Shown: positions 5,496 to 61,912 of the stretch, in pieces
How positions within the stretch are numbered: the stretch's first letter is position 1
How the letters are laid out: every line of letters begins with the position of its first letter
Source of the DNA: Gammaproteobacteria bacterium
Lineage (GTDB): Bacteria; Pseudomonadota; Gammaproteobacteria; SZUA-229
Assembly: GCA_016744065.1 (NCBI GenBank)
Contig: JADGFA010000010.1
Span: 21,146 to 85,145 of the forward strand
Length of the DNA: 64,000 bases
Direction: 5' to 3'
Position numbers and translations under genes: made by a program
Notes under the pieces: generated by a model
The model's database searches: none
What the model was told of the DNA's origin: nothing
Seen by the model: the letters and a program-made list of their open reading frames with translations, nothing else

Positions 5496-8400
5496 TCAAG
5501 CATTATTAGCAAGGTCATTTTTAAAAACCTCTAATACCGTTGCGCCTGCTTTTTGCAGCTCAGGCAACAGTAATTTAATTTTTTCCAGTTCATTGCGCCT
5601 TGCACATGCTTCCAGCTCAGTCGCTATCCCGCATAACTGAAGGGCACTCACATTTGCCGCCACACCTTTAAGGCCGTGTACAATTTTAGATGACAGATCA
5701 CAGTCACCCGAATCAACCGCTTCCTTTAACTCATTTATACGTTCAGGTACTTCCTCTATAAAAACCTCAATAACGGTTATAAATAACTCTTTATTATTTA
5801 ATAATCGTTCTAATGTATCTTCTTTATCCCAAATTACAACTTCATTAGACTCATCATTACCCTCTTCAGAAACAGGAACATTTTGAGTTTCATTTATTTC
5901 TAAAGATAAAGCTTCGCCTAATTTTTTTAATAATTTTTTGGGATCAATTGGTTTAGATAAATAATCACTCATACCCGCATCCAGACATTTTTCCCTGTCA
6001 CCCTGCATTGCATTGGCTGTCATGGCAAAAATAGGTATATCCTGATAATTTTCACCACACTCTCCTTTGCGAATTTCACGGGTTGTTTCATAACCATCCA
6101 TTTCTGGCATCTGGCAATCCATAAGAATCAGGCTGTACATATCCGTTTCATAAAATGCATTTAAACTTTGTAATGCCTCCAGACCATTATTCGCCACATC
6201 AACAGCCAGACCAAAATCAGCTAATATACCCTGTGCCACCAGTTGATTTACATGGTTATCTTCCACTAGTAATATGCGTGTATTTTCTGGCCAGTGATAA
6301 TTTGTTTTTTCTTTTTCATCATCATGTGTAAATGTTTGCAAGTACTCATGGGTAACCAGAGGCCTGTCATTCTGCAAAGTTGATCCATCAGCAATAACAA
6401 CGGCCAATGCATTAAACAAATCTGAAGTAGTGGCGGGTTTGGGAAAATAAGCACTGAAACCTATATTTTTAAATCTATTTACATCGTCCTGAAAGCCCAT
6501 TGAGGTCATCATGACCAGCTTCATGTCACTAAAACGTTTATCTGAAATAAATATTTCACCTAATGCTTCGCCATCCATCTCTGGCATTTGCATATCAAGA
6601 AATGCAATATCAAAAACATTCTTTCCATTATTATCTATTTTTTCATTACATATCTGTAAAGCCTGCTTAGCGCTATGTGCCTCAACAACCGTTGCTCCCC
6701 AGTGCTCTAACTGCCCCCTCAAAACCTCACAGTTTGTAACATTATCATCCACTATTAATAAACTTAACTTATTTATATCAATTTTTGGAATAACCCGTTT
6801 TGACTGGCTGCTTTTTTCTAATTGAATATAAAACGTAAAAGTACTACCTTTACCCTTTACACTCTTGGCGCTAATATCACCTCCCATCAAAATACATAAT
6901 TTTCTAGCGATAGCCAGGCCCAGGCCTGTTCCTCCATACTTACGGGTTGTTGACGCATCGACCTGACTAAATGAATCAAACAAAGCAGGTAACTTGTCTT
7001 CTGGTATTCCTATACCTGTATCGCTTATATTAAACTCTACTGTTAACTGCTCATCACCATTTTCCCGTATTTCCACCTGGACAACTATTTCTCCAGTAGA
7101 TGTAAATTTAACCGCATTACCAACCAGGTTAGTTAACACCTGCCTTAAACGACTAGGGTCACCTCTTACCATTGACTGCTCTACTTTTGTTACATCCAGA
7201 ACAAGCTCTAACCCTTTTGACTGTGCAGTGTAAGCCATAGACTCGGCAAACTCACCTAACATACCACGGATATTAAAATCAATAATTTCAAGATCTAATT
7301 TATTTGCTTCAATTTTAGAAAAGTCTAAAATATCATTTATTAATGTCAGTAATGCCTGACCACTAGACTGGGCAACTTTCACCCGATGCAACTGATCACT
7401 ATCAAGCCTTGTATTTAATAATAAGCTCAACATACCAAGCACACCATTCATAGGCGTACGAATTTCATGACTCATACTGGCAAGAAATTCACTTTTGGCT
7501 ACAACAGCCTGCTCTGCTTTTTTAATTGACTCTATAAGCGCCAGTTCAGTCTGTTTCTGGTTTGTAATATCGGTACGAATAGCAATATAACTTTCAGGCT
7601 TACCCTGCTCGTTCATATATGGAACAATGGTCGTGTCAACCCAATAGAAATCACCACTTTTTGCTTTATTACAAATTTCTGAATGAAAAACGTCCCCATT
7701 TGTCAATTGATTATACATATCCTTAAAAAATGCTTTATCGTGTTTACCCGACTTAAGTAAACGATGGTTTTGTCCTATAAGCTCATCTCTTGTATAACCA
7801 GAAATATTTTCAAATAGATCATTTACAAAAGTAATTGTCCCTTTTACATCTGTAATGGCAACGATGGAATGCTGATCAAGTGCAAATTTTTGTTGATTTA
7901 AATCTTTCAGTGCTTTAACTATTTTATCTTTACTTAACTCTAATTTTTTTTCATGCTCACGGCGAACTTTCAACATATAATTAAAAGCATCAGCAAGTTT
8001 ACCTAATTCATTATTTGATTTAATATCAACGATTTCATCAGTCTGGCCTGATGCAACTTTATTACTCACCTTAACAAGAGCATATATAGGACGAAGGATA
8101 CTATACGACTTATAATATGCCATTAAAACAATGACTATGAGACTGATAAACACGCTGATTACTTGCATTTTTGCCAGTTCATTAATAGAAGAAAAAGCTT
8201 TTTCTGACTCAACTTCACTAACTAAAATCCAGTTAATATTTTTTATTTTAATTGGCTTACGAACACCTATTAGCTTTTTATTATTTTTCCCGATATACTC
8301 ATGCGGATTAAAATCCTCTTCTTCATTATTTTCAGCTTCAACATTGTGATTAAGCACCATATCCATGCTACCACCATACATAGAGCTTCTTAATTCTCCT

Positions 8401-9206
8401 TCATTCGTTATTAAGTATTGATGTAAAACACTTACATCAAATTCATCTGAAACTTTTTTCCCTCCTGATAAACCTAATACATCTAATACACCTGATACAC
8501 CTAATACATCCGATACATCTGATAAATTATCAAATATAACATCAAGTTTTATCTGTATTGCAAAGACACCTGATTTTTCACCTGAACTATTTAATATAGG
8601 CGATGTTATAAAAGCGGTTAACAGGTTATTCGAGGGCTGATAACGCTCAATACCTGAAAAAGCATCTTCGCCTGTTTCCAGTGTATATTTTACAGCCTGT
8701 GAAAATTTGGTACTGGAATATGTGCCTGTAAATAAATTGCTACCCAGATCAGATTCCTGTTCCACGCTGTACAATATATTCCCATCATTATCAATCAGCA
8801 CCAGATCATATACATAACTATAACGACGGCTAAATAAAGCCAGATCATTTCTATTTTCTTTTATACGTTTTATCCAGTCGTCACTTTTTATATAATCCGA
8901 TAAACTTTTTTTACTTTTATAAAAACCGTCAGATAATTCTTCTAATAAAATCAAATTATTTTGAGATTCAGCCTGGCTATTTAAATCTGTAAATCGATAA
9001 AAAAACCAGTTTTCAATAAATTTAGCACTCAGGCTGGAGGAGTGCATGAGTTTATCGATTGCAGAGGATTTCAGACTTACCCCCGCCTGTTGATACTCAA
9101 GCCACGACACAATAATAACAGGCATAAGACCTATTAATAAATAAGATAGAATCAACCCATTTCTGAGTGAACCATACCTCTTTTTCTTCTGATGAAATTT
9201 ATTCAC
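5496..9206 (-). CDS. Hybrid sensor histidine kinase (TM, Cache-like periplasmic domain, TM, PAS, HisKA, HATPase, REC, REC, Hpt)
   Basis: 1236 aa. Two TM segments flank a ~300-aa periplasmic region. H-box SHEIRTPMNGVLGM; G-boxes GTGLGLAIARKL. Two receiver domains (LIVDDNVTN...DMQMPEMDG and ILLVEDNHVNQ...DCQMPEMDG). C-terminal Hpt motif HGLKGVAANV. Confidence 0.85.
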   Translation of the reverse strand: MNKFHQKKKRYGSLRNGLILSYLLIGLMPVIIVSWLEYQQAGVSLKSSAIDKLMHSSSLSAKFIENWFFYRFTDLNSQAESQNNLILLEELSDGFYKSKKSLSDYIKSDDWIKRIKENRNDLALFSRRYSYVYDLVLIDNDGNILYSVEQESDLGSNLFTGTYSSTKFSQAVKYTLETGEDAFSGIERYQPSNNLLTAFITSPILNSSGEKSGVFAIQIKLDVIFDNLSDVSDVLGVSGVLDVLGLSGGKKVSDEFDVSVLHQYLITNEGELRSSMYGGSMDMVLNHNVEAENNEEEDFNPHEYIGKNNKKLIGVRKPIKIKNINWILVSEVESEKAFSSINELAKMQVISVFISLIVIVLMAYYKSYSILRPIYALVKVSNKVASGQTDEIVDIKSNNELGKLADAFNYMLKVRREHEKKLELSKDKIVKALKDLNQQKFALDQHSIVAITDVKGTITFVNDLFENISGYTRDELIGQNHRLLKSGKHDKAFFKDMYNQLTNGDVFHSEICNKAKSGDFYWVDTTIVPYMNEQGKPESYIAIRTDITNQKQTELALIESIKKAEQAVVAKSEFLASMSHEIRTPMNGVLGMLSLLLNTRLDSDQLHRVKVAQSSGQALLTLINDILDFSKIEANKLDLEIIDFNIRGMLGEFAESMAYTAQSKGLELVLDVTKVEQSMVRGDPSRLRQVLTNLVGNAVKFTSTGEIVVQVEIRENGDEQLTVEFNISDTGIGIPEDKLPALFDSFSQVDASTTRKYGGTGLGLAIARKLCILMGGDISAKSVKGKGSTFTFYIQLEKSSQSKRVIPKIDINKLSLLIVDDNVTNCEVLRGQLEHWGATVVEAHSAKQALQICNEKIDNNGKNVFDIAFLDMQMPEMDGEALGEIFISDKRFSDMKLVMMTSMGFQDDVNRFKNIGFSAYFPKPATTSDLFNALAVVIADGSTLQNDRPLVTHEYLQTFTHDDEKEKTNYHWPENTRILLVEDNHVNQLVAQGILADFGLAVDVANNGLEALQSLNAFYETDMYSLILMDCQMPEMDGYETTREIRKGECGENYQDIPIFAMTANAMQGDREKCLDAGMSDYLSKPIDPKKLLKKLGEALSLEINETQNVPVSEEGNDESNEVVIWDKEDTLERLLNNKELFITVIEVFIEEVPERINELKEAVDSGDCDLSSKIVHGLKGVAANVSALQLCGIATELEACARRNELEKIKLLLPELQKAGATVLEVFKNDLANNA

Positions 9207-9659: not shown

Positions 9660-10190
9660 CTATTTATCAATATTTAAGCAAACAGGCTCAAATTCGAATT
9701 GAGAGCTCTTCATCTCCAAAAACCTTGACTTAAGTATTGCACCGAGGCGCACTCTGAGTAGATCAGCTACCAGAGGTTTATGCAGATACTCACTGGCCCC
9801 TGCTTTAAATGCCTCACTAATAATACCCACACTATTTAACCCGGATATCACTACCACTGGTATATTATAAGTAGCTGCATGACCAGAAATAAACTTACAA
9901 CCCTCAATACCATTACCGTCGGGCAGGTTAATATCCATTAAAACCAGGTCAAACTCAGGCGTAACAGATGATTGTTTTCTGTTGTAGTGCATTAATAACA
10001 TGCCTTGTTCAAGGCTCGATGCAATGGTGACAGAAGCAACTCCAATTTTCCTTAATAAGGCGACAGTTAAACGTTGAAAAGTACTGGAATCATCTATTAA
10101 AAGTATCCTGGCATCTGATAAGTATTTCGATATATCCTGAATGGGTAACATGGGATTCTCCTTCCGCTTATAAACGGACAATTTATGCAC
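9660..10190 (-). CDS. Single-domain response regulator (CheY-like receiver)
   Basis: 176 aa. LLIDDSSTFQRL...LMDINLPDGNG...KPL are receiver-domain motifs. No output domain. Confidence 0.75.
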   Translation of the reverse strand: MHKLSVYKRKENPMLPIQDISKYLSDARILLIDDSSTFQRLTVALLRKIGVASVTIASSLEQGMLLMHYNRKQSSVTPEFDLVLMDINLPDGNGIEGCKFISGHAATYNIPVVVISGLNSVGIISEAFKAGASEYLHKPLVADLLRVRLGAILKSRFLEMKSSQFEFEPVCLNIDK

Positions 10191-10432: not shown

Positions 10433-10448
10433 TGGCATATTCATTGCT
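10433..10448 (+). promoter_or_regulatory. Candidate sigma-54 (RpoN) -24/-12 promoter TGGCAT-N5-TTGCT
   Basis: Sequence aaaagTGGCATattcaTTGCTgac has GG and GC spaced exactly as in the TGGCAC-N5-TTGCW consensus. It lies 45 bp upstream of the ATG at 10494. The operon it would drive ends with an NtrC-family sigma-54 activator gene. Confidence 0.5.
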
Positions 10449-10493: not shown

Positions 10494-10880
10494 ATGTTTT
10501 TCAATACACCCAGGGTACTGATCATTGATGATGATGCGAGCCTACGACGACAAATAAAATTTCGTCTTGAAAAACATGAGGGTTTAACTGTTGTTGAAGC
10601 AAAAAATGGTGAAAGTGGTCTTGTATCTGCTGATGTCGAGAATCCTGATCTCATTATTCTTGACTGGGTGATGCCAGACATACAGGGACCAGAAGTGCTT
10701 GATCAACTCAAATTGAAAAGCAATACGCAAAATATACCTATTATTATGCTCACAGGCAAAAATAAAATAGGCAATATTGAAGATGCCTTTAATCTTGGTG
10801 CTGATGCTTATCTAACCAAACCATTTTCATTGCAAAAACTGGGGGAAAAGGTACACCAGCTATTAACCTCAAAAAATTAA
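10494..10880 (+). CDS. Single-domain response regulator (CheY-like receiver)
   Basis: 128 aa. VLIIDDDASLRR...ILDWVMPDIQG...TKPF receiver motifs. First gene of a co-directional RR-SBP-HK-NtrC operon. Confidence 0.8.
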   Translation: MFFNTPRVLIIDDDASLRRQIKFRLEKHEGLTVVEAKNGESGLVSADVENPDLIILDWVMPDIQGPEVLDQLKLKSNTQNIPIIMLTGKNKIGNIEDAFNLGADAYLTKPFSLQKLGEKVHQLLTSKN

Positions 10881-10947: not shown

Positions 10948-11814
10948 ATGAAATTAATTATTACCTCATTACTACTATTCAGCCTTATGACGACAGCAGC
11001 CCAGTCTGAAATAAAGTTAAAATTTGGTGTATATACATCCGATAAACCCACAACAATGGTCAAGATGTTCCGTCCTTTGCTCGACACACTCGAAAATAAC
11101 TTAAGTATAAAACTGAAGCAACCTGTAAGTATCAGCCTCCAGGTGGCTAGAACCTATGATCAGGGGATAGAAGATCTTGTTAAGGGTAATGTTGATTTTG
11201 CTCGTATGGGCCCAGCATCTTATATTACCAGCAAAAAATTAAACCCTGATTTAAAATTACTTGCTATGGAAAGTAAAAAGGGTAGAAAAATATTTTATGG
11301 CATTATTTGTGTTCAGGAAAACAGTCCCTTCCAGTCAATCAAGGAATTAAAAGGGCATTCCTTTGCATTTGGCAATCAACGCTCTACCATTGGTCGATAC
11401 CTCTCTCAGCACCTGCTATCAACTGAAGGCGTTCATGCAAACAACCTGAGCAATTATAAATACCTTAAAAGACATGACAGGGTCGGCTATGCTGTGGGTA
11501 CAGGCCAGTTTGATGCGGGCGCCCTGAAAGAAGGAACATTCAAAAAGCTCGTAAAAAAAGGCGTAAAAATCCGTGAACTTACACGTTTTCCAAATGTAAC
11601 CAAGCCCTGGATCGCAAGCTCTAAAATGAGCCACGAGAATATGTTGGCACTAAAGGGGGCGCTACTTTCTATAACTGATAAAAATGCTCTGAAACCATTA
11701 AAGAAGCAGGGCTTTCTAAGCGCACAGGACAGTGACTATGCTGTCATTCGAAAATCAATGTTAAATAACAATGATTTTTTCAAACCAGATGAGACATTAA
11801 GTAATAACAGATAA
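10948..11814 (+). CDS. Periplasmic substrate-binding protein, PhnD/SsuA-like (phosphonate-type ABC SBP fold), probable co-sensor for the adjacent kinase
   Basis: 288 aa with signal peptide (MKLIITSLLLFSLMTTAAQS). FGVYTSDKP...DFARMGPASY resembles PhnD-family SBPs. No ABC permease or ATPase genes nearby; the next gene is a histidine kinase starting 9 bp downstream. Confidence 0.6.
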   Translation: MKLIITSLLLFSLMTTAAQSEIKLKFGVYTSDKPTTMVKMFRPLLDTLENNLSIKLKQPVSISLQVARTYDQGIEDLVKGNVDFARMGPASYITSKKLNPDLKLLAMESKKGRKIFYGIICVQENSPFQSIKELKGHSFAFGNQRSTIGRYLSQHLLSTEGVHANNLSNYKYLKRHDRVGYAVGTGQFDAGALKEGTFKKLVKKGVKIRELTRFPNVTKPWIASSKMSHENMLALKGALLSITDKNALKPLKKQGFLSAQDSDYAVIRKSMLNNNDFFKPDETLSNNR

Positions 11815-11822
11815 TATTTCAT

Positions 11823-14162
11823 ATGCGTAAATCAAAAAAAATATTGCACTCACGATGGCCTCTTTTACTACAGGTAACATTATCATTATCTGTAGTATTA
11901 ATTTTAGTAAGCCTGTTAACTGCCTACCTGACTTTTCACATCGTGAGTGATTTTGAATTTAACCGTGCAAAAGAAAAAAACATTAGCTCTCTTTCATTAT
12001 TATCAGCCACAGCAATTGATGCTGTAATCACCGAAGACATACCATTACTCAACACTATAGCAACACAAACATTAAAGCAGTCCCCGCAAATACATAGCCT
12101 TATTATAGAAAATGAGCAGGGAAAAAGAATGGTTCAACAAAGCCAGAATGATATTACACCTGATAACATGCTGCGCACTTATAGTCATAGTATTATTTTT
12201 GAAAATGAAAATTTTGGTTCCATTATTATGCAAATGGACATAAGGCCTATAAAAAAACAGATTAATAACCAGGTAACCCGTGTACAGATTTTTGTTATAT
12301 CTATTCTTTTAACGCTAACAGCGCTTATTGTAATATTGATCCACTGGCTAACTATTCGGCCTATTCGCATTATTATTCGTTACCTTAATTCTATATCTGA
12401 AAGCCAGCAACAATTACCGTTACGACTCTCTATATCCGCCAGTCGTGAACTGGAACTACTGGCCTCATCAGCCAGCGAACTATCAGAGATGATGTTACAA
12501 CGTTATCAACGTGAAAAAGAATTATTACAGACACGTGAAGAATTAATCGAAGCACACAATGAGGCCTTAAGTGCGAGTCGAGCAAAATCTGGATTTTTAG
12601 CGGCTATGAGCCATGAAATTCGCACACCCATGAATGCCGTACTGGGTATACTTGGATTACTCAGAGACACTGCTCTGGATAAACACCAGAAGCAATTGGT
12701 ACGCACAGGACGTGACTCAGGTGAATTACTGTTAACCATTATCAATGACATTCTTGATTTCTCAAAAATGGAGGCCGATAAATTACAACTGGAACAAAGT
12801 GGCTTTGACCTGCACCGCCTACTGACACATAGCGCTGAATTACTCCGACATCAGGCTGACCGAAAAGGCCTGGCGCTCATTCTACGCCTTGAACCTGTAC
12901 CCGACCTGCCGCGTTATGTTAAAGGTGACCCGGATAGACTCCGCCAGATATTAATTAACCTGATTAACAATGCAATTAAGTTTACCCCAAATGGCACTAT
13001 TACAATCAGCGCTTCAGCCACTACACTTAATTATGACAAACTAACCGCTAATGAAGAAACCTTTATTCTTAGTTGTTCCGTACAGGATACGGGGATTGGC
13101 ATCCCCGAAGACCTTCAGTATTCCCTGTTTGAAGAATTTACAATGGCAGATCAGAGCCATTCAAGAAACCATGAAGGCACTGGCCTCGGACTTGCCATAT
13201 GTAAACGTCTTGTTACATTAATGGATGGCAATATAGAGTGTTGTAGCGAACTTGGAAAAGGCAGTAATTTTGTTTTTGCTATCGAGCTTAAAACAGCCAC
13301 TGAGGAAGAATGCAGCGACCGATTTTCCATAGACGAACCACAATTAATTCCCGACAGTAATACGCGTATCCTGCTCGCTGAAGACAATCCGGCTAACCAG
13401 ATGGTGATTAAAAATATCCTTGAATATGCGGGCCTGCAAGTTGATATAGTCGCTAATGGCCGTGAAGCCGTTGAGGCCATTCGTAGCCTGCCCTATGACA
13501 TTATACTAATGGATATTTCCATGCCTGAAATGGATGGTATGACGGCTACCCGTGAAATACGCAAACTTCCCGGTGAAAAAGGTAAGCTGGCAATTGTTGC
13601 CCTGACCGCCCATGCTTTATCTGGTGATCGAGAACGCTTTATTCAGGCAGGTATGGATGATTACCTGAGCAAACCCATTGATAAAAAAGCAACCCTGCAC
13701 TGTATTGCTAGCTGGACAAATAAAAAAATTAATAAAAACCCTGAAATGACGGCTCCCATAAATCAAAATGAAGCACCTGCTAGCGATATTAGCAAAGATG
13801 AGCAGTACGAATATGTAGATGAACAGGTACTACAACAGCTTATACACGACACTGATGCAGAAATTGTGCCTGAGCTATTAACACTCTACATTGTTGATGC
13901 AAAAAAACGCAGTCAATTAATAAAACGGGCCTTTGAAGAAAAAGATATAAGAACCCTGGAATTTGAATCACATACACTGGGTAGTAGTGCAGCAGCACAT
14001 GGAAATGAAAAGTTACACCGGCAATCACGAGCTATTGAACACCTCTGTCAGGAAGGAAATCATCAGCAAGCTCTACAACAAACTGCTACATTACTTAGTA
14101 TTGCAGATGAATCTTTTCGCCTACTGACACTTCGTGTTAACAAAGGATTTAATAATGAGTGA
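11823..14162 (+). CDS. Hybrid sensor histidine kinase (2 TM, short periplasmic loop, HisKA, HATPase, REC, Hpt)
   Basis: 779 aa. H-box SHEIRTPMNAVLGILGLL; N/G boxes ...NNAIKFT, DTGIGIP, GTGLGLAICKRL. Receiver domain ILLAEDNPANQ...DISMPEMDG...KPI. C-terminal Hpt-like segment (ESHTLGSSAAAHG). Confidence 0.85.
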   Translation: MRKSKKILHSRWPLLLQVTLSLSVVLILVSLLTAYLTFHIVSDFEFNRAKEKNISSLSLLSATAIDAVITEDIPLLNTIATQTLKQSPQIHSLIIENEQGKRMVQQSQNDITPDNMLRTYSHSIIFENENFGSIIMQMDIRPIKKQINNQVTRVQIFVISILLTLTALIVILIHWLTIRPIRIIIRYLNSISESQQQLPLRLSISASRELELLASSASELSEMMLQRYQREKELLQTREELIEAHNEALSASRAKSGFLAAMSHEIRTPMNAVLGILGLLRDTALDKHQKQLVRTGRDSGELLLTIINDILDFSKMEADKLQLEQSGFDLHRLLTHSAELLRHQADRKGLALILRLEPVPDLPRYVKGDPDRLRQILINLINNAIKFTPNGTITISASATTLNYDKLTANEETFILSCSVQDTGIGIPEDLQYSLFEEFTMADQSHSRNHEGTGLGLAICKRLVTLMDGNIECCSELGKGSNFVFAIELKTATEEECSDRFSIDEPQLIPDSNTRILLAEDNPANQMVIKNILEYAGLQVDIVANGREAVEAIRSLPYDIILMDISMPEMDGMTATREIRKLPGEKGKLAIVALTAHALSGDRERFIQAGMDDYLSKPIDKKATLHCIASWTNKKINKNPEMTAPINQNEAPASDISKDEQYEYVDEQVLQQLIHDTDAEIVPELLTLYIVDAKKRSQLIKRAFEEKDIRTLEFESHTLGSSAAAHGNEKLHRQSRAIEHLCQEGNHQQALQQTATLLSIADESFRLLTLRVNKGFNNE

Positions 14163-15582
14163 TAAACCCAGCGTACTTCTCGTTGAAGATGCCGCACCTC
14201 AGGCACTGCTTTATCAACAATACCTCAAAGATGAATTAATCGATCTTGAACACGTGGACACAGGTGAAAAAGCAAAACAGTTCATTGCCTCAAACCCGCC
14301 TGAACTCATTTTACTTGATCTTAAACTACCTGATATGGATGGACAGGATATATTACACTGGATAAAAAAAGAGAAATTTCCCTGCTCTATAATTATTATC
14401 ACCGGCAACAGTTCAGTTGATATCGCAGTAGAAGTAATGCAAATAGGAGCAAATGACTTTTTAGAAAAACCTTTCAGCGCTAACCGCTTAAGAACAACAA
14501 TAAAAAATCAACTTAATCAAACACGACTACGCCACCTGGTCGATGACTACCAGGTAACATTTAAACGTAAAAGCTACCATGGCTTTATCGGTTCCTGCCT
14601 GCCCATGCAGGCTGTTTATCGAATTATCGATGCTGCTGCCACCAGTAAAGCAACCGTTTTCATAACCGGCGAAAGCGGAACAGGAAAAGAGGTATGTGCA
14701 GAAGCGATTCACAGACAGGGGCCTCGTTCAGATAAAAAATTCATTGCACTAAACTGCGGCGCAATCCCCCATGACCTAATGGAAAGCGAAATATTTGGAC
14801 ATGTCAAAGGTGCATTTACCGGGGCTTCCAGTGAACGAAAAGGCGCTGCAACATTAGCTGATGGCGGCACTTTATTTCTTGATGAAATAGGTGAGATGGA
14901 TATGGAATTGCAGACAAAGCTATTAAGATTCATTCAATCCAGTAGTTTTCAGAAAGTAGGTGGTAATAAACAGGAAAGTGTCGACATCCGTTTCATCTGC
15001 GCCACAAACCGTGATCCTTTAGAAGCGGTAACAACGGGTAAACTTAGAGAAGATTTATATTATCGTTTGCATGTCGTACCACTACACCTACCTCCCTTAA
15101 GAGAGCGCGGTAATGATATAATGGAAATCGCCCAACAATTTCTCATTACGTATGCAAAAGAAGAAAACAGATTATTCAGCGGATTTACCAACGAAGCAGA
15201 AAGCACCTTAAACAATTATAACTGGCCTGGAAATGTACGTCAGTTACAAAATGTCATTCGAAATATCACTGTATTACACAACGATAAGCGTGTTACGCAG
15301 GCCCACCTTCCCCCGCCACTTAATAACTCACAAAACATACCTGAAGCACCACCACAATCTCCGACAACACAGCCCTCAACAGAGCAAGCCGAGATAGAAA
15401 TGATAGAACAACCCACTATACCTGCGCCGGATCAGGAAAAACAGACAATAAGACCACTAGCAGATGTAGAGCGTGAAACCATAGAACGAGCCATTACTCT
15501 CTGTGACGGTAACATTCCTAAAGCAGCAGCTCTGTTAGATGTTAGCCCATCGACCATTTATCGAAAAAAACAGGGCTGGTAA
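14155..15582 (+). CDS. Sigma-54-dependent response regulator, NtrC family (REC, AAA+ sigma54-interaction, Fis-type HTH)
   Basis: Start chosen at ATG 14155 ([13 protein letters not shown]), which overlaps the upstream kinase stop (ATGAGTGA). Walker A GESGTGKE; ESELFGH and GAFTGA motif; C-terminal HTH ([15 protein letters not shown]). Confidence 0.85.
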
Positions 15583-15874
15583 CCTGACTTATCTATAAAC
15601 AACATAATTATTTCAATAATATATATACGAACCCTGATCCATAATAAACCAATAAAATAAAACTCTGACAATAAATTCTAACAGCACTTAAAATCAGACA
15701 TTGGTCATATTACTCTTGAAATTAGTTATTCTTTTACATACTATTCATACACCATTCCAACATGTCTATCCGTGGAAAAACCGTTAAATTACATGTTCGG
15801 AAAACGAATAAGCATACACTTATTCACATCGGTGAAAATATAATTTAACAAAATGATGAAAAAGGATATGTTGC

Positions 15875-18800
15875 ATGAGTGACAATAAAGCTACAGGGCA
15901 GTTTCCATTCCCAGGCGCTGCCGTTATATTACTCGCCCTCGGAGTATTCATATATACAGAAAATCCTTTTCAAACAACTCGTCCTGATGTTTCAAATAAC
16001 TTAACAACAAACACTGAAAGCGTACGCGCCAGATTATGGCAAGATCCATTTGAAGCAGTTCAACTGCATAAAGATATAAATCACAGTAACAATTCAGAAA
16101 ATATTAATAATGAAAATCACAATCATACAGAATGCTACATTGTTAATAATGAAATCATAAAAAACAAAGACAAGATAAATATTACAGCTATTAAAGAAGA
16201 CAAAAACACCTCTTTAATTACATCAACCCATGATTTCAATGACTTACACTGCAATATATTACAGAACATTAAATCAGAAACACAAAGTAATAAAAAGCAC
16301 TATGACTTACATGTAATTGCGGTCATGGTCACTGGTGGCCCTTACGCTGAAGATAAAGAACTTCGCATCAGGAGTCGCTATGCACTCACAACAGGTATCA
16401 TGAGTACTGGGTACAACCCTGTTGATTCTGAACATATAGGCTATATCGACTTTTCAAAACCGTGCATAAAACCCAACCTGTCAAACGCTTCCTCCAGACA
16501 CTCCAGCTATTGCGACTGGCCTGCCGTTATACCCTACGAGTACTTTAACCTTTCAAGCACAGGGGAAAACTGGAGTGACTCCCGTTTTTCTAAAAATATT
16601 CTAGTACTATGGTTAGATGATGAAATAATATCAAAAAACAAACCATTAGACATGTTATCAAAAATACAAGACTCTCTAACACAGAACATGAACAACAACA
16701 AACTGCTAATAACTAACAACAATACAGTTAAAAACAAAGAAAACATATCCTTAAAATTTGATGTTATTGGCCCCGCCAGCTCAACAACACTGGTAAAAAT
16801 GTACAAAAACTTAAACCAGAAATGCAATAAAATGAATGATAATTGTTCACCTGTAAAAGAGAAATACGGTGACCAGAATAAAATAAGAATATTTTCCCCC
16901 AGAGCCACATTAGACAACAAAGCAATAACACGAATAATCAACAAAAGCACATTAAGCGACAATAATGAATATAGCAATCTGAACTTTCCAGGCTTTCATC
17001 GCACAATTTCAACAGACTCACTTCTTGTAGACAGCTTACTTTGTGAAATGCTCAGAAGAGGTGTTAATCCATTCCATAAAAAAGAGTATGTTACCAATGA
17101 AAATCAAAAAATAAGTCGTATTGGTAACACCGAATGCACAGACTATTCACTATCTAAACTTAACACAAACAATAAAAATGATTATATTGCCCTGATTGGA
17201 GAGTGGGACACAACCTACTCAAGAAACTTCGAAAGATTATTCAGGGAAAAAATAATACATCAAATATGCCAAAAAAAGCCCGAAACTAACCAGCAGGCAT
17301 GTAAAGATGAGTTAAACCATAAAACAAAAAAGAGCAAACTGACAGAAAATTTTGACTGGTTATATAGCTTTAACTATTTACGCGGGCTGGATGGAGAAAT
17401 TTCAAAAAATAATGGAAATTTTATTTCATCAAAAAATAATTATGAAAAAGATAAAGATAAAAAAACATTAAGAAGATCTGCCGGCGCCAACCAGTTTGAT
17501 TACTTAAGGAGACTGGCCAAACAGATAAAAAAACTATCTGAGTCAAAAAACAACATAGGAACAGTTAGAGCAATAGGTATAGTTGGTAGCGATACATATG
17601 ATAAATTATTAATTCTTCAGGCATTAAGAGCCCATTTCCCTGATGTATTATTTTTTACAACTGATCTCGACGCAAGAATGCTCCATCAATCAGAAAACGA
17701 ATTCACAAGAAACCTTATTGTTGCATCTGCTTTTGGATTAACACCTGATCCGAAAAGCAGTGGTTACATATACCACGGCCTTGCATTTAGAGACAGCTAC
17801 CAAACATCTCTGTACAATACAGTACAAAAAACAGTCAACAACAATACTAATAAAAGCACATCCTCTTTTGACCTTATTTCACCTGTAAAAATATTTGAAA
17901 TTGGTAATAAATCCGCTATTGATTACACCCATAACAACAACCCAGATAGTCACAATAAAAATATAAAACCACTGTATATATTTTTATCAGTTAGTCTGAT
18001 TATACTGCTTCTCTTACAGTCTAATAATGCAGCTAGAATATATATTTTTACTATCTCTATAATCACATACTCAGTTCTATATTGGGCAAGCCTGTATAAC
18101 TTACCTGGTAATACAGAATTTCACTTCATGCTATCAGGAACCAGTGTGTGGCCTGCTTACATAATAAGAATGACGGCAGCTATAAGCGCCATAGTATCTA
18201 TTATTTATACAATAATCGCACTAAAAATAAATGCATTTAATATTATCGAAAAAAATAAATTGTCAGATGAGATACGTATTACACCAAAAAAATATTTTAT
18301 AAAAAAAATAAAAGAAACAGGAAATAATCATATAAAAAAATACTTATCGACTATTCTGTATTATTTTAAATGGCATTTAACCTGTGATTGTTACAATAAA
18401 AAAACGATAGAGAATAGAAAACTTAAAAAGCCGTGCTTCATTGCGCATATTCTAATTACCACCTGGGGCTGGAAAGACAGTAAATTTGATAAAATAAACC
18501 TGGATAATATATTTTATCAATATATATACCTGTCTAAGCCTCTATCGCGCCTGTCAAGAGTTACAGTAATATCAATTTTATACCTTATAATTTCAATGGG
18601 AATATTAAGCTCTTTTCCCAATATGCCAGTAACACCTTTTGTAGGAAAAATCAGTGCCGATGCCAGCTCTACAATATTATTTTCTTTATTAATACCCTAT
18701 GTTTTTCTGATTTTTTTAGTCTCTGATGTCACTCGGTTAAATTTACGCTTTGTAGAATTACTGTCTAAATATAATGTTATATGGCCTGATAGTATATTAA

Positions 18801-19327
18801 ATGCATATTGTGATAAATATGGGCTTAGTAAAAAAATAGCCATTGAAAAACTAAAACTTGATATTATTGTAAAAAGATCAAAAATTGTTGATAAATTAAT
18901 ATTTTTGCCTTTTATAATTCTCACCCTGATGATACTTTCAAGAAGCAATTACTTTGACAGGTGGGACATGCCACCTCAATTAGCTTTTATTATTTTACTA
19001 GGTGCATGTGTTGCACTTAGCAGCGCTATCAGACTTAGACGATCTGCTAGAAAAGCACGCTTTTATGCTTTAAAAAACCTTAATAAAATCTATAAAAATA
19101 TGATATATACTGAAACCAAACCTAAAAGCGATAAAGATATTCATGGCACCGATTACAGCTTAAAACTACCAGAACGCTTAAAATTAATAATAAGTGACAT
19201 TGAAAACATTTCAACTGGTCCTTTTGCTCCTATCACTAAACACCCTATAATTTCTGCGGTCGCCTTACCATTTGGTGGAGTTGGTAGCCTTTATATCATT
19301 GAATATTTATCTAAAATAAATTTATAA
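15875..19327 (+). CDS. Large Asn/Lys-rich membrane protein: N-terminal signal anchor, periplasmic type-I PBP (ANF-receptor/Venus-flytrap-like) domain, 7-8 C-terminal TM helices; function unknown
   Basis: 1150-aa ORF in a very AT-rich segment. N-terminal hydrophobic segment AAVILLALGVFIY. Motifs HVIAVMVTGGPY, FDVIGPASSTTLVKM, YIALIGEWDTTYS and RAIGIVGSDTYDKLLILQALRAHFPDVLFFTTD resemble type-I periplasmic-binding-protein beta-strand/helix signatures (the VIGPxSS hallmark). After ~aa 690 there are at least seven strongly hydrophobic helices. No kinase, GGDEF or other output domain recognisable. Confidence 0.5.
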   Translation: MSDNKATGQFPFPGAAVILLALGVFIYTENPFQTTRPDVSNNLTTNTESVRARLWQDPFEAVQLHKDINHSNNSENINNENHNHTECYIVNNEIIKNKDKINITAIKEDKNTSLITSTHDFNDLHCNILQNIKSETQSNKKHYDLHVIAVMVTGGPYAEDKELRIRSRYALTTGIMSTGYNPVDSEHIGYIDFSKPCIKPNLSNASSRHSSYCDWPAVIPYEYFNLSSTGENWSDSRFSKNILVLWLDDEIISKNKPLDMLSKIQDSLTQNMNNNKLLITNNNTVKNKENISLKFDVIGPASSTTLVKMYKNLNQKCNKMNDNCSPVKEKYGDQNKIRIFSPRATLDNKAITRIINKSTLSDNNEYSNLNFPGFHRTISTDSLLVDSLLCEMLRRGVNPFHKKEYVTNENQKISRIGNTECTDYSLSKLNTNNKNDYIALIGEWDTTYSRNFERLFREKIIHQICQKKPETNQQACKDELNHKTKKSKLTENFDWLYSFNYLRGLDGEISKNNGNFISSKNNYEKDKDKKTLRRSAGANQFDYLRRLAKQIKKLSESKNNIGTVRAIGIVGSDTYDKLLILQALRAHFPDVLFFTTDLDARMLHQSENEFTRNLIVASAFGLTPDPKSSGYIYHGLAFRDSYQTSLYNTVQKTVNNNTNKSTSSFDLISPVKIFEIGNKSAIDYTHNNNPDSHNKNIKPLYIFLSVSLIILLLLQSNNAARIYIFTISIITYSVLYWASLYNLPGNTEFHFMLSGTSVWPAYIIRMTAAISAIVSIIYTIIALKINAFNIIEKNKLSDEIRITPKKYFIKKIKETGNNHIKKYLSTILYYFKWHLTCDCYNKKTIENRKLKKPCFIAHILITTWGWKDSKFDKINLDNIFYQYIYLSKPLSRLSRVTVISILYLIISMGILSSFPNMPVTPFVGKISADASSTILFSLLIPYVFLIFLVSDVTRLNLRFVELLSKYNVIWPDSILNAYCDKYGLSKKIAIEKLKLDIIVKRSKIVDKLIFLPFIILTLMILSRSNYFDRWDMPPQLAFIILLGACVALSSAIRLRRSARKARFYALKNLNKIYKNMIYTETKPKSDKDIHGTDYSLKLPERLKLIISDIENISTGPFAPITKHPIISAVALPFGGVGSLYIIEYLSKINL

Positions 19328-19415: not shown

Positions 19416-20714
19416 TCACTCACTTTTTAACTTATCCATCAATAACTCAATTTCATGTACTAGCTCAGGACTATCCCATTCTATTGCTGCGTTAACACCG
19501 TATTTTATCTTGCCATCTATTCCTATTAAAAAAGTAGAGGGATAAGTAATCACATTCCATTTTTTTGCAAAATCACCATTATTATCTAACAGCACGGGAT
19601 ACTCGACATTCACTCGATTCATAAATTCAACAATTTTAGATTTATCTTCTGCGTAATTTATTGAAACCAGCTCAAATGGCAAGCCCTTCATTTTATTTTT
19701 CAAACGATTTAAAGAAGGTATTTCCTCTACACAGGGTGCACACCAGGTCGCCCAAAAATTAACCAGGGTTACCTGATTTTTAAAATTTTGTTTATGGAAA
19801 TCACGGCCAGACACATCAGTTAAATTTATAGAAGCAGGCGTTTTATTACCTTTAAACTCTCTAAGATAAATATCAATACCAGAATCCTTTGCTCTATACT
19901 CCTTTAAAGGTATCGCAGCTTCAGGTAATTTATGCCTGTCTAAAACACCTATCATCTTTATAACATTACCAGGTAAGGACTTAATTAATTTCAACATTAA
20001 ATCGGATGGCTCTTCCTTATGAAACAGGCTCATCACATCCGGCATAGATTTAGTATAAACAGGGTTATTATTTTTTCTCAATAATTCAAGTAACAGGTCG
20101 AACTGTCCTATTGCACCACTTTTTTTTGCCTGATATATCATAAGAGGAATATTAGTAGAAGACACTACAGGCATATATTCAGGCGCCAACCCCAATGAAG
20201 GAATATAGGCGTAAGCATAAGGTGAAAAAAGAATCGCCCCAACCAGGTTCGCTTTAATCTTTATTTTTTCCTGCCATTGATGGGCACCAATCAATGCCGC
20301 TAAAGCGCCATAAGAATCCCCCACAACAACAATCTTTTTACCTGTTTTCCGGTGTGCGTACTCAATTACATCCGCAATATAATGGCCATCCAATAACCTT
20401 AAAGGCCCTGGCCCTCTAAGCATAAACAAAGAAGAAATTATATCTGCCTGCCAGACCTCTACACCCAAATCAGATAATGACTGGGAAAATAAAGAATGAG
20501 ACTTACGAAAACCATACTCTGGTGGCAACCAGACAACTAAATATTCACCTTTGGCTGGGAAAGTTTCAACTGTAATCTCTGAATCATCTGTTGCAACAAT
20601 ACTAATTTCATCAGCATATCCAGATTTACCCAAAAAAAGCAAAAAACTAATGGCAATATAAAAACCTGTTAATACAATTTTACTCATAACACCCCACATC
20701 AAGAGAACAACCAC
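19416..20714 (-). CDS. Exported fusion protein: alpha/beta-hydrolase (GDSYG nucleophile elbow) + C-terminal TlpA/ResA-like thioredoxin-fold (WCAPC) domain
   Basis: 432 aa with signal peptide. Hydrolase motif VVVGDSYGALAA (GxSxG). C-terminal VTLVNFWATWCAPCVEEIPSLNRL is a classic TlpA/redoxin CxxC segment. Confidence 0.65.
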   Translation of the reverse strand: MVVLLMWGVMSKIVLTGFYIAISFLLFLGKSGYADEISIVATDDSEITVETFPAKGEYLVVWLPPEYGFRKSHSLFSQSLSDLGVEVWQADIISSLFMLRGPGPLRLLDGHYIADVIEYAHRKTGKKIVVVGDSYGALAALIGAHQWQEKIKIKANLVGAILFSPYAYAYIPSLGLAPEYMPVVSSTNIPLMIYQAKKSGAIGQFDLLLELLRKNNNPVYTKSMPDVMSLFHKEEPSDLMLKLIKSLPGNVIKMIGVLDRHKLPEAAIPLKEYRAKDSGIDIYLREFKGNKTPASINLTDVSGRDFHKQNFKNQVTLVNFWATWCAPCVEEIPSLNRLKNKMKGLPFELVSINYAEDKSKIVEFMNRVNVEYPVLLDNNGDFAKKWNVITYPSTFLIGIDGKIKYGVNAAIEWDSPELVHEIELLMDKLKSE

Positions 20715-20734: not shown

Positions 20735-21709
20735 TTACTTACGCCAGCTAACATCATATTCATGCACTTCATCTACCACTTTAACTGATACAATATCATT
20801 ACTTACACCCATTTCAAAACGATTCCAATAGGTTGAAGAACGCTGTATTACAATAGCGGCTGATAGCTCACCTTTAATTTCTACATTTTTTTGATACGAT
20901 TTTAATGATTCGCAATAATAGGCATTACAAATATCAGAACGCAACTCCCTGGTTAATGCACACCCAGTTACTGTTTGATTAATACATGAATTTATAACCG
21001 ACTCATGAGGTATTTTATTAATATACATTTCTAATAATTCTTCTGGTAAAACGTCAGGATTTTCATCCATATAACGTCGAACAGAAAAAACAGACAGGTA
21101 AGCATGCTCTTTACCCGATGCACAACAGCCACCTTTACACATACAGCATAATCGATCACTTATTGCCTTCAGTGCAGGCATGGCATCAAACTTTTTTTCA
21201 ATATATAAATGCTTATCATAAGCATGGTAATGTTCATCATGCTCAATCTCAGAAGCATTATTATATGTACAGGCTTCTTCAACAATAAAAACCAGATGCG
21301 TTATATAACGCTCTCTACGCTCATCAGTAATAACTAACTGTGCCGAATCACCTGAAGGTATTGTTAATAAAAACGTATTATTATCTGATAATTTCAGATT
21401 TTCATCAAAAATAGCCTGCTGAATATTAAACGACTCCTGCATTTCTTTATGCTTTATTTCATCAAGGTGTTTTCTTTTTGCAATACTTCTCTCACGCTGC
21501 TTAATTATAAGCTTTCGATTAAAATCAAGATGTGACCTGAACATATAATGATTCATGCTCGACTTTTTTTTCATAACCCGCCGGCAATCAGGTGAACGAC
21601 AAACCGAATAACCAATATCAATATAATTCAATCTGTCAATATGCGGTAATAGTGCATCACAGACTTCACATTTTGATTTATCATTATGGGTGTAAATATC
21701 CAGCGACAT
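20735..21709 (-). CDS. Cysteine-rich hypothetical protein (N-terminal CxxC...CxxxxC zinc-ribbon-like pairs; C-terminal CCMCKGGCC cluster)
   Basis: 324 aa. N-terminal CEVCDALL and CRSPDCRR pairs. C-terminal LCCMCKGGCCASGKEH cluster (reminiscent of the YkgJ-type CxxCxxCC metal-binding motif, but not identical), plus further Cys residues (CINQTVTGCALT..CNAYYCES). No homolog I can name. Confidence 0.4.
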   Translation of the reverse strand: MSLDIYTHNDKSKCEVCDALLPHIDRLNYIDIGYSVCRSPDCRRVMKKKSSMNHYMFRSHLDFNRKLIIKQRERSIAKRKHLDEIKHKEMQESFNIQQAIFDENLKLSDNNTFLLTIPSGDSAQLVITDERRERYITHLVFIVEEACTYNNASEIEHDEHYHAYDKHLYIEKKFDAMPALKAISDRLCCMCKGGCCASGKEHAYLSVFSVRRYMDENPDVLPEELLEMYINKIPHESVINSCINQTVTGCALTRELRSDICNAYYCESLKSYQKNVEIKGELSAAIVIQRSSTYWNRFEMGVSNDIVSVKVVDEVHEYDVSWRK

Positions 21710-21827: not shown

Positions 21828-22712
21828 CTAACTTAAAGCCTTTAATGCAGCAATACGTTCCTCTAATGGAGGATGACTCATAAACAGCTTACGTAAACCG
21901 TTTGATACACTGGCATTAATACCAAATGCGGCCAGTTGATCAGGCATATGAGCAGGACGATGTATATTCTGCAATCGCTGCAATGCAGCAATCATTTTTT
22001 CTGTTCCTGCTAAATGAGCAGCACCCGCATCTGCCCGAAACTCACGGCGCCGAGAAAAATACATAACAATAGAACTCGCCAATATACCAAAAAAAATTTG
22101 TGCCACAATACTGGTAATGTAATAAGCGGGCCCATAACCCCTTTGCGTTTTAAACACGACCCTGTCGACCACATGACCAACAACGCGAGAAAAAAAGATA
22201 ACAAATGTATTAACTATACCCTGAACCAAAGCCAGAGTAACCATATCACCATTAGCAATATGACTAATTTCATGGGCAAGTACGGCCTCTACTTCATTTT
22301 GCTGCATATTCGCTAATAAACCTGAACTTACAGCCACCAGAGCCGCATTTTTATTCATGCCTGTAGCAAATGCATTAACATCAGCCGAGTCAAAAATGGC
22401 AACTTCTGGCATTTTGATAGCTGATTGTTGGGCCTGCTTTTCCACAGTCTGCAATAGCCAGCTTTGAGTCCTGTCTCCAGGCCGTGTAATCACCACCGCA
22501 CCCATTAATTTTTTAGCTGACCATCTGGACATTGCTAATGAAATGAATGACCCCGACATACCAATGACGGCAGACATAATTAACAAGGCCTCAAGATTTA
22601 AATCAACCCCATTTTCAGCAAGCGTTGACTCCAGCCCTAAAAGACTAAATACCAGACTAATAATCACCATCACAGCAATATTAGTTAACAAAAACAGACC
22701 AATACGTAACAT
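21828..22712 (-). CDS. htpX: Zinc metalloprotease HtpX (M48 family)
   Basis: 294 aa with N-terminal TM helices. HExxH motif in VLAHEISHIANGDM. Overall HtpX layout. Confidence 0.85.
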   Translation of the reverse strand: MLRIGLFLLTNIAVMVIISLVFSLLGLESTLAENGVDLNLEALLIMSAVIGMSGSFISLAMSRWSAKKLMGAVVITRPGDRTQSWLLQTVEKQAQQSAIKMPEVAIFDSADVNAFATGMNKNAALVAVSSGLLANMQQNEVEAVLAHEISHIANGDMVTLALVQGIVNTFVIFFSRVVGHVVDRVVFKTQRGYGPAYYITSIVAQIFFGILASSIVMYFSRRREFRADAGAAHLAGTEKMIAALQRLQNIHRPAHMPDQLAAFGINASVSNGLRKLFMSHPPLEERIAALKALS

Positions 22713-61300: not shown

Positions 61301-61912
61301 CAAAAAGCGCACATCATTGGTGGCGACGACCGGAGTATTTGTGGCCATTGCCAAACTCACCGCAGCATGCAGATATTCTTCTTCATCTTCTCGACCTGTA
61401 CGTTGTAACTCAAGATAAAACCGGTCTGGAAAAATATGCTGCCAGGCTTTCAACAATTCTTCAGCCTGCATCTGATTTCCAGATAACAACGCCTTACCAA
61501 CATCACCTTCCCTACCACCGGAAAGTGCAATAATTCCAGCACTGGATTCTCGAAGCCAGTCGACCTCAATCATTGGAATTCCGCCATGCTGGCCCTCAAG
61601 ATAAGCACGTGAAATAAGCTGGGTTACATTTAGATAACCTTCATTGTTCTGGCATAGCAAAACCATACGCGATGGCTTCTCAGTTTCCACTGCCGGACGC
61701 AACCAGACATCTACTCCAATGATGGGTTTTATACCGGCAGACATAGCTGCACGATAAAACTTCACCATAGCAAAAAGATTAGACTGGTCAGTCAGCGCAA
61801 CAGCGGGAACATTGCTATCAGCCAGGGTTTTCATTAACGGTTTGATGCGAACAACACCATCCACCAGTGAATACTCAGTGTGAAGACGTAAGTGTATAAA
61901 ACGGGGATTCAT
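58397..61912 (-). CDS. dnaE: DNA polymerase III alpha subunit
   Basis: 1171 aa. PHP domain N-terminus [19 protein letters not shown], polymerase core, OB-fold C-terminus. Co-linear with DnaE. Confidence 0.95.

Follow-up and report, generated by a model that had tools for sequence, protein, structure and literature searches.

A 64,000-nucleotide stretch of DNA from a gammaproteobacterium (contig JADGFA010000010.1 of assembly GCA_016744065.1, positions 21,146 to 85,145 of the forward strand), hereafter called the window, carries on its plus strand an ATG-started open reading frame (ORF) of 1150 codons plus a stop codon at 15875–19327. We analyzed this gene and its product, which very probably consists of a type-I Venus-flytrap ectodomain and a membrane domain with the 7TMIC fold, the fold of insect odorant receptors (ORs) and gustatory receptors (GRs). 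The combination is widespread in bacteria and undescribed in the literature we searched.

The coding sequence is complete, judging from the ORF call, from 102 homologues that are nearly all full length, and from the identical protein found on other assemblies. A ribosome-binding site (AAGGA, 15862–15866) lies 8 nt 5' of the ATG, and the start Met is nearly invariant across the family alignment. A frameshift or pseudogene, contemplated in a preliminary description of this DNA made from its letters, does not apply here: the ORF is intact and is conserved in more than 100 full-length homologues. That description also remarked on a very low GC content, and the ORF is indeed the lowest of the 33 window ORFs of at least 250 amino acids (0.327, against a mean of 0.400 and a standard deviation [sd] of 0.034); the GC minimum among the 1-kb bins of the window, 18001–19000 (0.291), falls inside it. 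Most of the deficit sits at codon position 1 (0.358, versus about 0.45–0.55 in neighboring genes), and GC at the third codon position (GC3), at 0.289, is below the window mean (0.330, sd 0.038) by only about 1 sd. The protein is rich in Ile, Leu, Asn, Ser and Lys, and we attribute the low GC of the ORF to this amino acid composition.

Ectodomain and N-terminal segments

The chain opens with a signal-anchor transmembrane (TM) helix, TM0 (residues 14–30, 15914–15964), evident from the hydropathy of the protein and with a family-averaged hydrophobic core at residues 14–26. It continues into a juxtamembrane segment (residues 31–70, 15965–16084) that bears the motif RARLWQDPF, defined by invariant alignment columns. 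In the family, 11 of the 40 columns of this segment are at least 80% conserved, and R36, P37, R53, W55, D57 and P58 are invariant. Behind it comes a variable, Asn-rich, low-complexity linker (residues 71–140, 16085–16294), in which 31 of 70 columns consist mostly of gaps across the family and no column reaches 80% conservation. A full-length AlphaFold2 model (56-sequence alignment) reached a predicted local distance difference test (pLDDT) score of 80.5 and a predicted template modeling (pTM) score of 0.81, with low confidence at the N terminus, in the Asn-rich linker and in an insertion at residues 510–536. Confidence in the linker is below that of the flytrap and membrane domains, with 10-residue block means of 51–83 and one short stretch below 50.

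Residues 141–690 (16295–17944) form a periplasmic Venus-flytrap domain, a type-I periplasmic binding-protein fold with family-specific insertions such as the disordered segment 510–536. Searching the ectodomain against the PDB with Foldseek returned type-I binding proteins (4evq_A, E = 6.8e-5) and the flytraps of NMDA, mGlu and Ca-sensing receptors; the domain shows the two-lobe alpha/beta topology of type I and can be superposed on solved members. A domain of this kind had been proposed in the preliminary description, which quoted four motifs, and all of them occur in the translation (HVIAVMVTGGPY at about residue 145, FDVIGPASSTTLVKM at 295, YIALIGEWDTTYS at 436 and RAIGIVGSDTYDKLLILQALRAHFPDVLFFTTD at 564). 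The proposal holds at the level of fold but not at that of sequence, where neither the protein itself (E ≤ 0.1) nor 42 family members (E ≤ 1) match the Peripla_BP_6 or ANF_receptor models. The ectodomain is a fold-level relative of these curated sequence families and not a member of them.

The flytrap is among the most conserved elements of the protein, with 106 of its 550 columns at least 80% conserved, and because this conservation is unusually high, it suggests one ligand class across the family. Its invariant residues include E162, R164, R166, R168, R395, D506, D542, Y543, D573, Y575, D576, R639 and Q643. The nearest ectodomain folds bind amino acids, amides, urea and aromatic acids. The number of ectodomain cysteines is even in 79% of members, and the members of three Cys pairs are nearly always present or absent together (C197 and C213, for instance, occur jointly in 28 sequences, are jointly missing from 28 and are discordant in 0); both figures are confounded by phylogeny, and the pattern is consistent with a periplasmic ectodomain.

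Fold and topology of the membrane domain

Hydropathy of the protein and the family-averaged profile both give one N-terminal and eight C-terminal hydrophobic helices, in agreement with the signal anchor and C-terminal helix block first described for this ORF. The earliest of the eight is an extra TM helix (residues 698–715, 17966–18019; family hydrophobic core 702–712), which in the model crosses from the periplasm back to the cytoplasm and precedes a seven-helix core. This core makes up the membrane domain (residues 718–1147, 18026–19315), to which the model and its structural matches assign the 7TMIC fold. Its modeled helices are TM1 (718–739), TM2 (759–793), TM3 (889–913), TM4 (924–965), TM5 (986–1022), TM6 (1034–1081), TM7a (1098–1110) and TM7b (1124–1147).

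Unexpectedly, a Foldseek search of the C-terminal part against the PDB retrieved insect gustatory and odorant receptors. Ranks 1–7 of the structural matches are all insect receptors, with scores of 10.3 (Gr43a), 10.1 (BmGr9), 9.9 (ApisOR5), 9.7 (AaegOR10), 9.3 (AgamOR28), 9.2 (Gr64a) and 8.9 (MhOR5); ApisOrco scores 7.7, and the next natural membrane proteins, Hrd1 and TatC, score 7.2 and 6.2. Neither a G-protein-coupled receptor (GPCR) nor a rhodopsin occurs among the top 60 matches. Bacterial "Bac7TMICs" and the insect ORs and GRs (Orco, MhOR5, Gr43a, BmGr9) both belong to the 7TMIC superfamily (Himmel, Moi & Benton 2023, bioRxiv 10.1101/2023.08.30.555482).

Several features of the domain are hallmarks of this superfamily. 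The extracellular loops are shorter than the intracellular ones: on family average, the outer loops EL1–EL3 measure 20, 12 and 10 amino acids, contain 3–7% Lys plus Arg (K+R) and are net negative, whereas the inner loops IL1–IL3 measure 81, 56 and 60 amino acids, contain 15–17% K+R and are net positive. These positive-inside statistics give the core an N-in/C-out orientation, with the chain ending 3–4 residues beyond TM7b on the outer side, and because they put IL1–IL3 in the cytoplasm, they make the ectodomain periplasmic. The cytoplasmic loop IL1 between TM2 and TM3 (residues 794–888, 18254–18538) is Lys/Arg-rich (K+R 17%) and poorly conserved, with 41 of 95 columns gap-dominated. In the model, TM4 (42 amino acids), TM5 (37 amino acids, kinked) and TM6 (48 amino acids) are long and reach into the cytoplasm, as in the 7TMIC anchor domain. 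The length of TM4 sets the protein apart from most Bac7TMICs, which have short TM4 and TM5 helices (bioRxiv 10.1101/2023.08.30.555482).

The split TM7 of 7TMICs is likewise present, as judged from model secondary structure and column counts (residues 1098–1147, 19166–19315). The cytoplasmic TM7a (1098–1110) and the membrane-spanning TM7b (1124–1147) are separated by a 13-residue linker with the conserved pattern G1115-x-F-x-P1119...H-P1124, in which G1115 is found in 53, P1119 in 54 and P1124 in all 56 of the 56 sequences. TM7b carries the sequence PFGGVGG and, at position 1143, an acidic residue (E or D) in 50 of the 56 sequences. TM5, EL3, the TM7a–TM7b linker and TM7b are the most conserved parts of the membrane domain and TM1, TM3 and IL1 the least, a profile that agrees with the one published for 7TMICs (bioRxiv 10.1101/2023.08.30.555482). 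Nearly invariant residues are found in EL1 (E748, G755, S757, W759, P760) and EL3 (F1027, D1028, W1030), and these would fit a fixed contact with the conserved ectodomain.

Family distribution and candidate modes of action

A search of 5.8 billion proteins gave 102 homologues, all labelled "hypothetical", none with a Pfam domain and nearly all of 1000–1300 amino acids; by BLAST, every one of them keeps both the ectodomain and the membrane domain. An exhaustive profile search with the membrane half extended the family to 3,660 clusters at 50% identity (2,356 at E ≤ 1e-30), among which the membrane domain is nearly always C-terminal in proteins of about 1000–1300 amino acids, and a scan of one genome per species found relatives in at least 572 species genomes. 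That no curated family covers the protein, as the preliminary description supposed, is borne out by scans of the query against Pfam and NCBIfam (E ≤ 0.1) and PADLOC (E ≤ 1), which returned no match. Scanned singly against Pfam (E ≤ 1), 42 members gave scattered single chance matches only, and six unusually long members (1321–1606 amino acids) contain no extra Pfam domain. Sequence searches of the PDB with the protein and with whole-family and membrane-domain profiles gave only insignificant hits at E > 0.2, for example to designed helical proteins, MgtA, LptF and anoctamin. We considered short members (384–560 amino acids) as stand-alone membrane domains and rejected them as such, as most either retain part of the ectodomain or have no start Met; such members are probably fragments from contig ends, with P0230 and P0131 ambiguous. 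Two family members lie on different contigs of single metagenome-assembled genomes (MAGs) in Ectothiorhodospiraceae, Gammaproteobacteria and Nitrosospira bins, so paralogues exist; counted directly by tblastn, tandem copies were absent from all 86 loci.

For host range and neighboring genes we used the best 80 loci, ranked by similarity. About 45 of the 80 belong to nitrifiers (Nitrosomonas, Nitrosospira, Nitrosovibrio, Nitrococcus, Nitrospira, Nitrotoga), anammox bacteria, Methylomirabilia and methanotrophs, in a count that is uncontrolled; other hosts are Acidobacteriota, Verrucomicrobiia, Planctomycetes and delta-proteobacteria. Orthologues from cultured organisms include those of Nitrosomonas, Nitrosospira multiformis, Nitrococcus mobilis Nb-231 and Methylomonas sp. 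11b. This family of several thousand clusters, prominent in nitrifiers, anammox bacteria and methanotrophs, has neither a Pfam nor an NCBIfam model and is annotated everywhere as "hypothetical protein". The prominence of these hosts is striking and might point to the ligand or to a shared physiology, and given their prevalence the protein may sense a nitrogen- or carbon-1-related solute. The same count could be read as a sign of an envelope or membrane-organizing role tied to nitrifier, methanotroph and anammox physiology, with the binding-protein fold serving as a scaffold, and the ectodomain far exceeds a plain binding protein in size (about 550–660 versus about 350 amino acids) and carries conserved charged motifs. 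We regard such a role as quite improbable: the host here is related to a sulfur-oxidizing tubeworm symbiont and not to a nitrifier, members also occur in the other phyla and classes just listed, and the taxon count reflects only the top 80 matches by similarity.

The protein has no recognizable output module. As first described, it bears no signature of a kinase, a cyclase, a GGDEF/EAL protein or a transporter: Pfam, NCBIfam and PADLOC gave no such match even with cutoffs of E ≤ 0.1 to 1, and Pfam and NCBIfam detect no HisKA/HATPase, MCP-signal, GGDEF/EAL or cyclase domain in the query, in 42 homologues or in the six extra-long members. What it shares with bacterial sensor kinases, chemoreceptors and cyclases is a periplasmic binding-protein fold as the input of an integral-membrane receptor; those proteins, unlike this one, carry HisKA/HATPase, MCP-signal, GGDEF or cyclase outputs. 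Nor does it correspond to the LivJ/LivK/AmiC/UrtA-type binding proteins (HAAT, Peripla_BP_6), which are soluble, measure about 350–390 amino acids and serve ABC importers or regulators, whereas here the fold is expanded by insertions, tethered to the membrane at both ends and below every Pfam and NCBIfam threshold.

Among receptors in which a clamshell domain meets the membrane, the class-C GPCRs (mGluR, CaSR, T1R, GABA-B) and the natriuretic-peptide receptor resemble the protein in logic only, as its membrane helices do not have the GPCR-type seven-helix arrangement. The class-C-receptor layout proposed in the preliminary description therefore survives as a design, a flytrap joined to a polytopic membrane domain, but not as a kinship, since the membrane domain is not GPCR-like and its best matches are 7TMICs. 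Ionotropic glutamate receptors and GluR0 have a pore formed by a potassium-channel-like inverted P-loop domain and an agonist site in a type-II clamshell; in our protein, by contrast, the membrane domain is 7TMIC-like without a P-loop pore, and the sole clamshell is of type I. The insect receptors, for their part, bind ligand within the helix bundle and have no ectodomain. Relative to 7TMICs in general, the protein has two additional TM helices and a 660-residue periplasmic ectodomain.

The reading we favor, to which we give slightly less than an even chance, is that of a stand-alone, chromosomally encoded inner-membrane chemoreceptor with nine TM helices, in which the flytrap gates a 7TMIC-type bundle. 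The TM0 anchor is followed by about 660 periplasmic residues that include the flytrap, then by the return helix and the seven-helix domain, and by analogy with 7TMICs the protein would assemble into an oligomer, probably a tetramer. A small periplasmic ligand bound in the flytrap cleft would close the two lobes, and closure would be passed through the juxtamembrane segment and the outer loops EL1 and EL3 to the helix bundle. There, a pore-lining TM7b would open an ion path, or at the least the cytoplasmic helical "anchor" bundle would rearrange, such that the output would be ion flux or membrane potential and not phosphorylation.

In 7TMICs, four subunits form a ligand-gated cation channel, with TM7b lining the pore. 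By analogy, a channel mechanism is a tentative proposal for this protein, one that we hold with rather less than even confidence, and the E or D at position 1143 could form a ring that attracts cations around the outer mouth of a tetramer. The fuller version, a ligand-gated ion channel in which the flytrap gates a tetrameric 7TMIC-type pore and which would be an independent invention, on the OR/GR scaffold, of the glutamate-receptor design in which a clamshell gates a channel, is possible but on balance unlikely.

Some observations weigh against a 7TMIC-type receptor. The whole protein has nine hydrophobic cores and not seven, and so falls outside the seven-segment filter used to curate prokaryotic 7TMICs. 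Sequence links to OR or GR families are absent from the Pfam scans of 42 members and from searches of the membrane-domain profile against PDB chains (E ≤ 10), and because no such link is detectable, homology to 7TMICs is unproven. In the literature searched there is no demonstrated activity for any bacterial 7TMIC. Undetectable sequence-level links are usual within the 7TMIC superfamily, and the seven-segment filter is a screening convenience, not a property of the fold. The 2023 screen kept prokaryotic matches with exactly seven predicted helices (bioRxiv 10.1101/2023.08.30.555482), and the flytrap architecture would have been discarded by it.

A non-conducting receptor is the leading alternative. 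Flytrap closure would then rearrange the cytoplasmic helices (the TM4–6 extensions, TM7a and IL1), which would bind or release a soluble partner encoded elsewhere, with the bundle acting as a relay. Protein–protein contacts are a common signaling route for bacterial receptors; cytoplasmic helices and loops make up about 200 residues of the membrane domain, the inner segments around TM4–TM5 and TM6–TM7a are conserved, and nothing in the present evidence shows a pore. We nonetheless consider a relay unlikely, as no conserved neighbor gene offers itself as a partner in the 80 loci, IL1 is the least conserved part, and conservation among the membrane segments peaks in TM7b, which bears the glycine-rich motif and the acidic residue and whose counterpart in 7TMICs is the pore helix.

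Uptake has a lower probability, and we rate it improbable. Here the flytrap would be a tethered binding protein that hands a nutrient such as an amino acid, amide or urea to the membrane domain, and the latter would be a facilitator or secondary transporter for it. The folds closest to the ectodomain do come from binding proteins that serve HAAT-type ABC importers or urea and amide systems, and other systems are known to contain binding proteins fused to the membrane domains of transporters. However, sequence searches detect no transporter family, the membrane domain has no transporter among its top structural matches, the 80 loci show no conserved ATPase or permease gene alongside, and the only known examples of the 7TMIC fold are channels.

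For a long time, the receptors behind insect smell and taste were considered an animal invention. Structure-based screens in 2023 detected 7TMIC relatives in bacteria and archaea (bioRxiv 10.1101/2023.08.30.555482), and our searches for a flytrap-7TMIC fusion or for the function of a bacterial 7TMIC gave this preprint only. The protein may be a new kind of bacterial chemical sensor. If it is a flytrap-gated channel, no prokaryotic 7TMIC before it would have had an identifiable input domain, and hence a tractable ligand and function. The family would also indicate at least three separate origins for the design of a clamshell with a membrane transducer, each on an unrelated scaffold (GPCR, P-loop channel and 7TMIC). 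A flytrap on a 7TMIC fold also provides an experimental handle, in that the ectodomain could be purified for ligand screening and the whole protein assayed for ligand-gated conductance.

Genomic neighborhood and host

Upstream of the gene, on the same strand, is a four-gene operon that encodes a receiver protein (10494–10880), a PhnD-like binding protein (10948–11814), a hybrid histidine kinase (11823–14162) and a LuxO/NtrC-like sigma-54 activator (14134–15582), the last three much as the preliminary description had them. With its listed GTG start (14134), the activator gene shares its first 29 nt with the kinase gene; on a public contig the activator starts at the equivalent of 14155 (475 amino acids, overlap 8 nt), and its true start is uncertain. 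Some 45 nt ahead of the receiver gene is a near-consensus sigma-54 -24/-12 element, TGGCATATTCATTGC (10433–10447, plus strand, 1 mismatch), which suggests autoregulation because it precedes an operon that encodes a sigma-54 activator. In two relatives with the same four-gene operon (activator 73–74% identical), the downstream genes are GlmS-like, DUF4842 and polysaccharide genes, and the operon sits within a locus for exopolysaccharide export and glycosyltransferases.

An AT-rich spacer of 292 bp (15583–15874) separates the activator gene from the gene under study and probably holds the latter's own promoter. Besides the ribosome-binding site, it contains sigma-70-like matches at 15665–15694, 15716–15744 and 15845–15872, all of which are consensus matches only; a scan for sigma-54 promoters (TGGCAC-N5-TTGC, up to 2 mismatches) found none in the spacer, and a scan for terminators between the two genes was also negative. 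An Rfam scan of the window gave no match, and the protein has no paralogue elsewhere in the window.

This arrangement bears on the interpretation first offered for the locus, that of a horizontally acquired, class-C-GPCR-like receptor that is the regulated target or a co-receptor of the adjacent module. The short distance to a co-oriented operon, the lowest GC in the window and the class-C receptor flytraps among the ectodomain matches are in its favor. It is otherwise largely refuted, and we consider it very improbable. The membrane domain matches no GPCR. The link to the NtrC/kinase module finds no support: the spacer lacks a sigma-54 promoter (the sole near-consensus one near the locus precedes the operon), the orthologous operons are followed by unrelated genes and homologues elsewhere do not sit beside such modules, and neither the 80 loci nor those inspected singly show a conserved neighbor, the largest cluster of 8 loci being lineage-specific Nitrospira synteny. 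Horizontal acquisition is likewise unsupported, given a GC3 within the range of the window, a low GC that stems from amino acid composition, flanking housekeeping genes and the retention of loose synteny. In the latter respect, a 54%-identical homologue elsewhere has a redoxin fusion and a PhnD-like binding protein/kinase within about 7 kb, and its loose synteny with these genes suggests long residence in the lineage.

The housekeeping genes of the window include dnaE, ftsK, rarA, hom and rlmG. The "endosymbiont of Galathealinum brachiosum" has a DnaE 95% identical to that of the window, and many vent and sediment gammaproteobacterial MAGs have one that is 85–92% identical; from these relatives and the housekeeping genes we conclude that the host is a marine gammaproteobacterium of the Galathealinum-endosymbiont group and that the gene is chromosomal. 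Identities differ between loci: DnaE (58397–61912, minus strand) has many relatives at 85–95%, whereas the flytrap-7TM protein drops from 100% to 54–57% and the LuxO-like activator from 94% to 74%. This gap could reflect differences in rate, or a region that is variable or poorly assembled in the closest relatives.

Downstream on the minus strand, 19416–20714 encodes a 432-amino-acid protein with a ResA/TlpA-like redoxin in its last 120 residues and no match for its first ~290; the redoxin fusion near the 54%-identical homologue is similar in size. It is followed by a 324-amino-acid ORF (20735–21709, minus strand) without a Pfam, NCBIfam or PADLOC match, and then by an M48 peptidase gene (21828–22712). 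On the other side, a second large hybrid histidine kinase gene (5496–9206, minus strand; 1236 amino acids, BarA/TorS-like, with HAMP and PAS domains on the public contig) is divergent from the two-component operon, and with a further receiver-domain gene (9660–10190, minus strand) it makes the region phosphorelay dense. At the start of the window, 103–4459 (plus strand) encodes an 846-amino-acid protein with weak glycoside-hydrolase-like similarity and a 607-amino-acid fusion of two "exosortase A system-associated hydrolases", hydr2_PEP at the N terminus and hydr1_PEP at the C terminus, which hints at a PEP-CTERM/exosortase exopolysaccharide system nearby.

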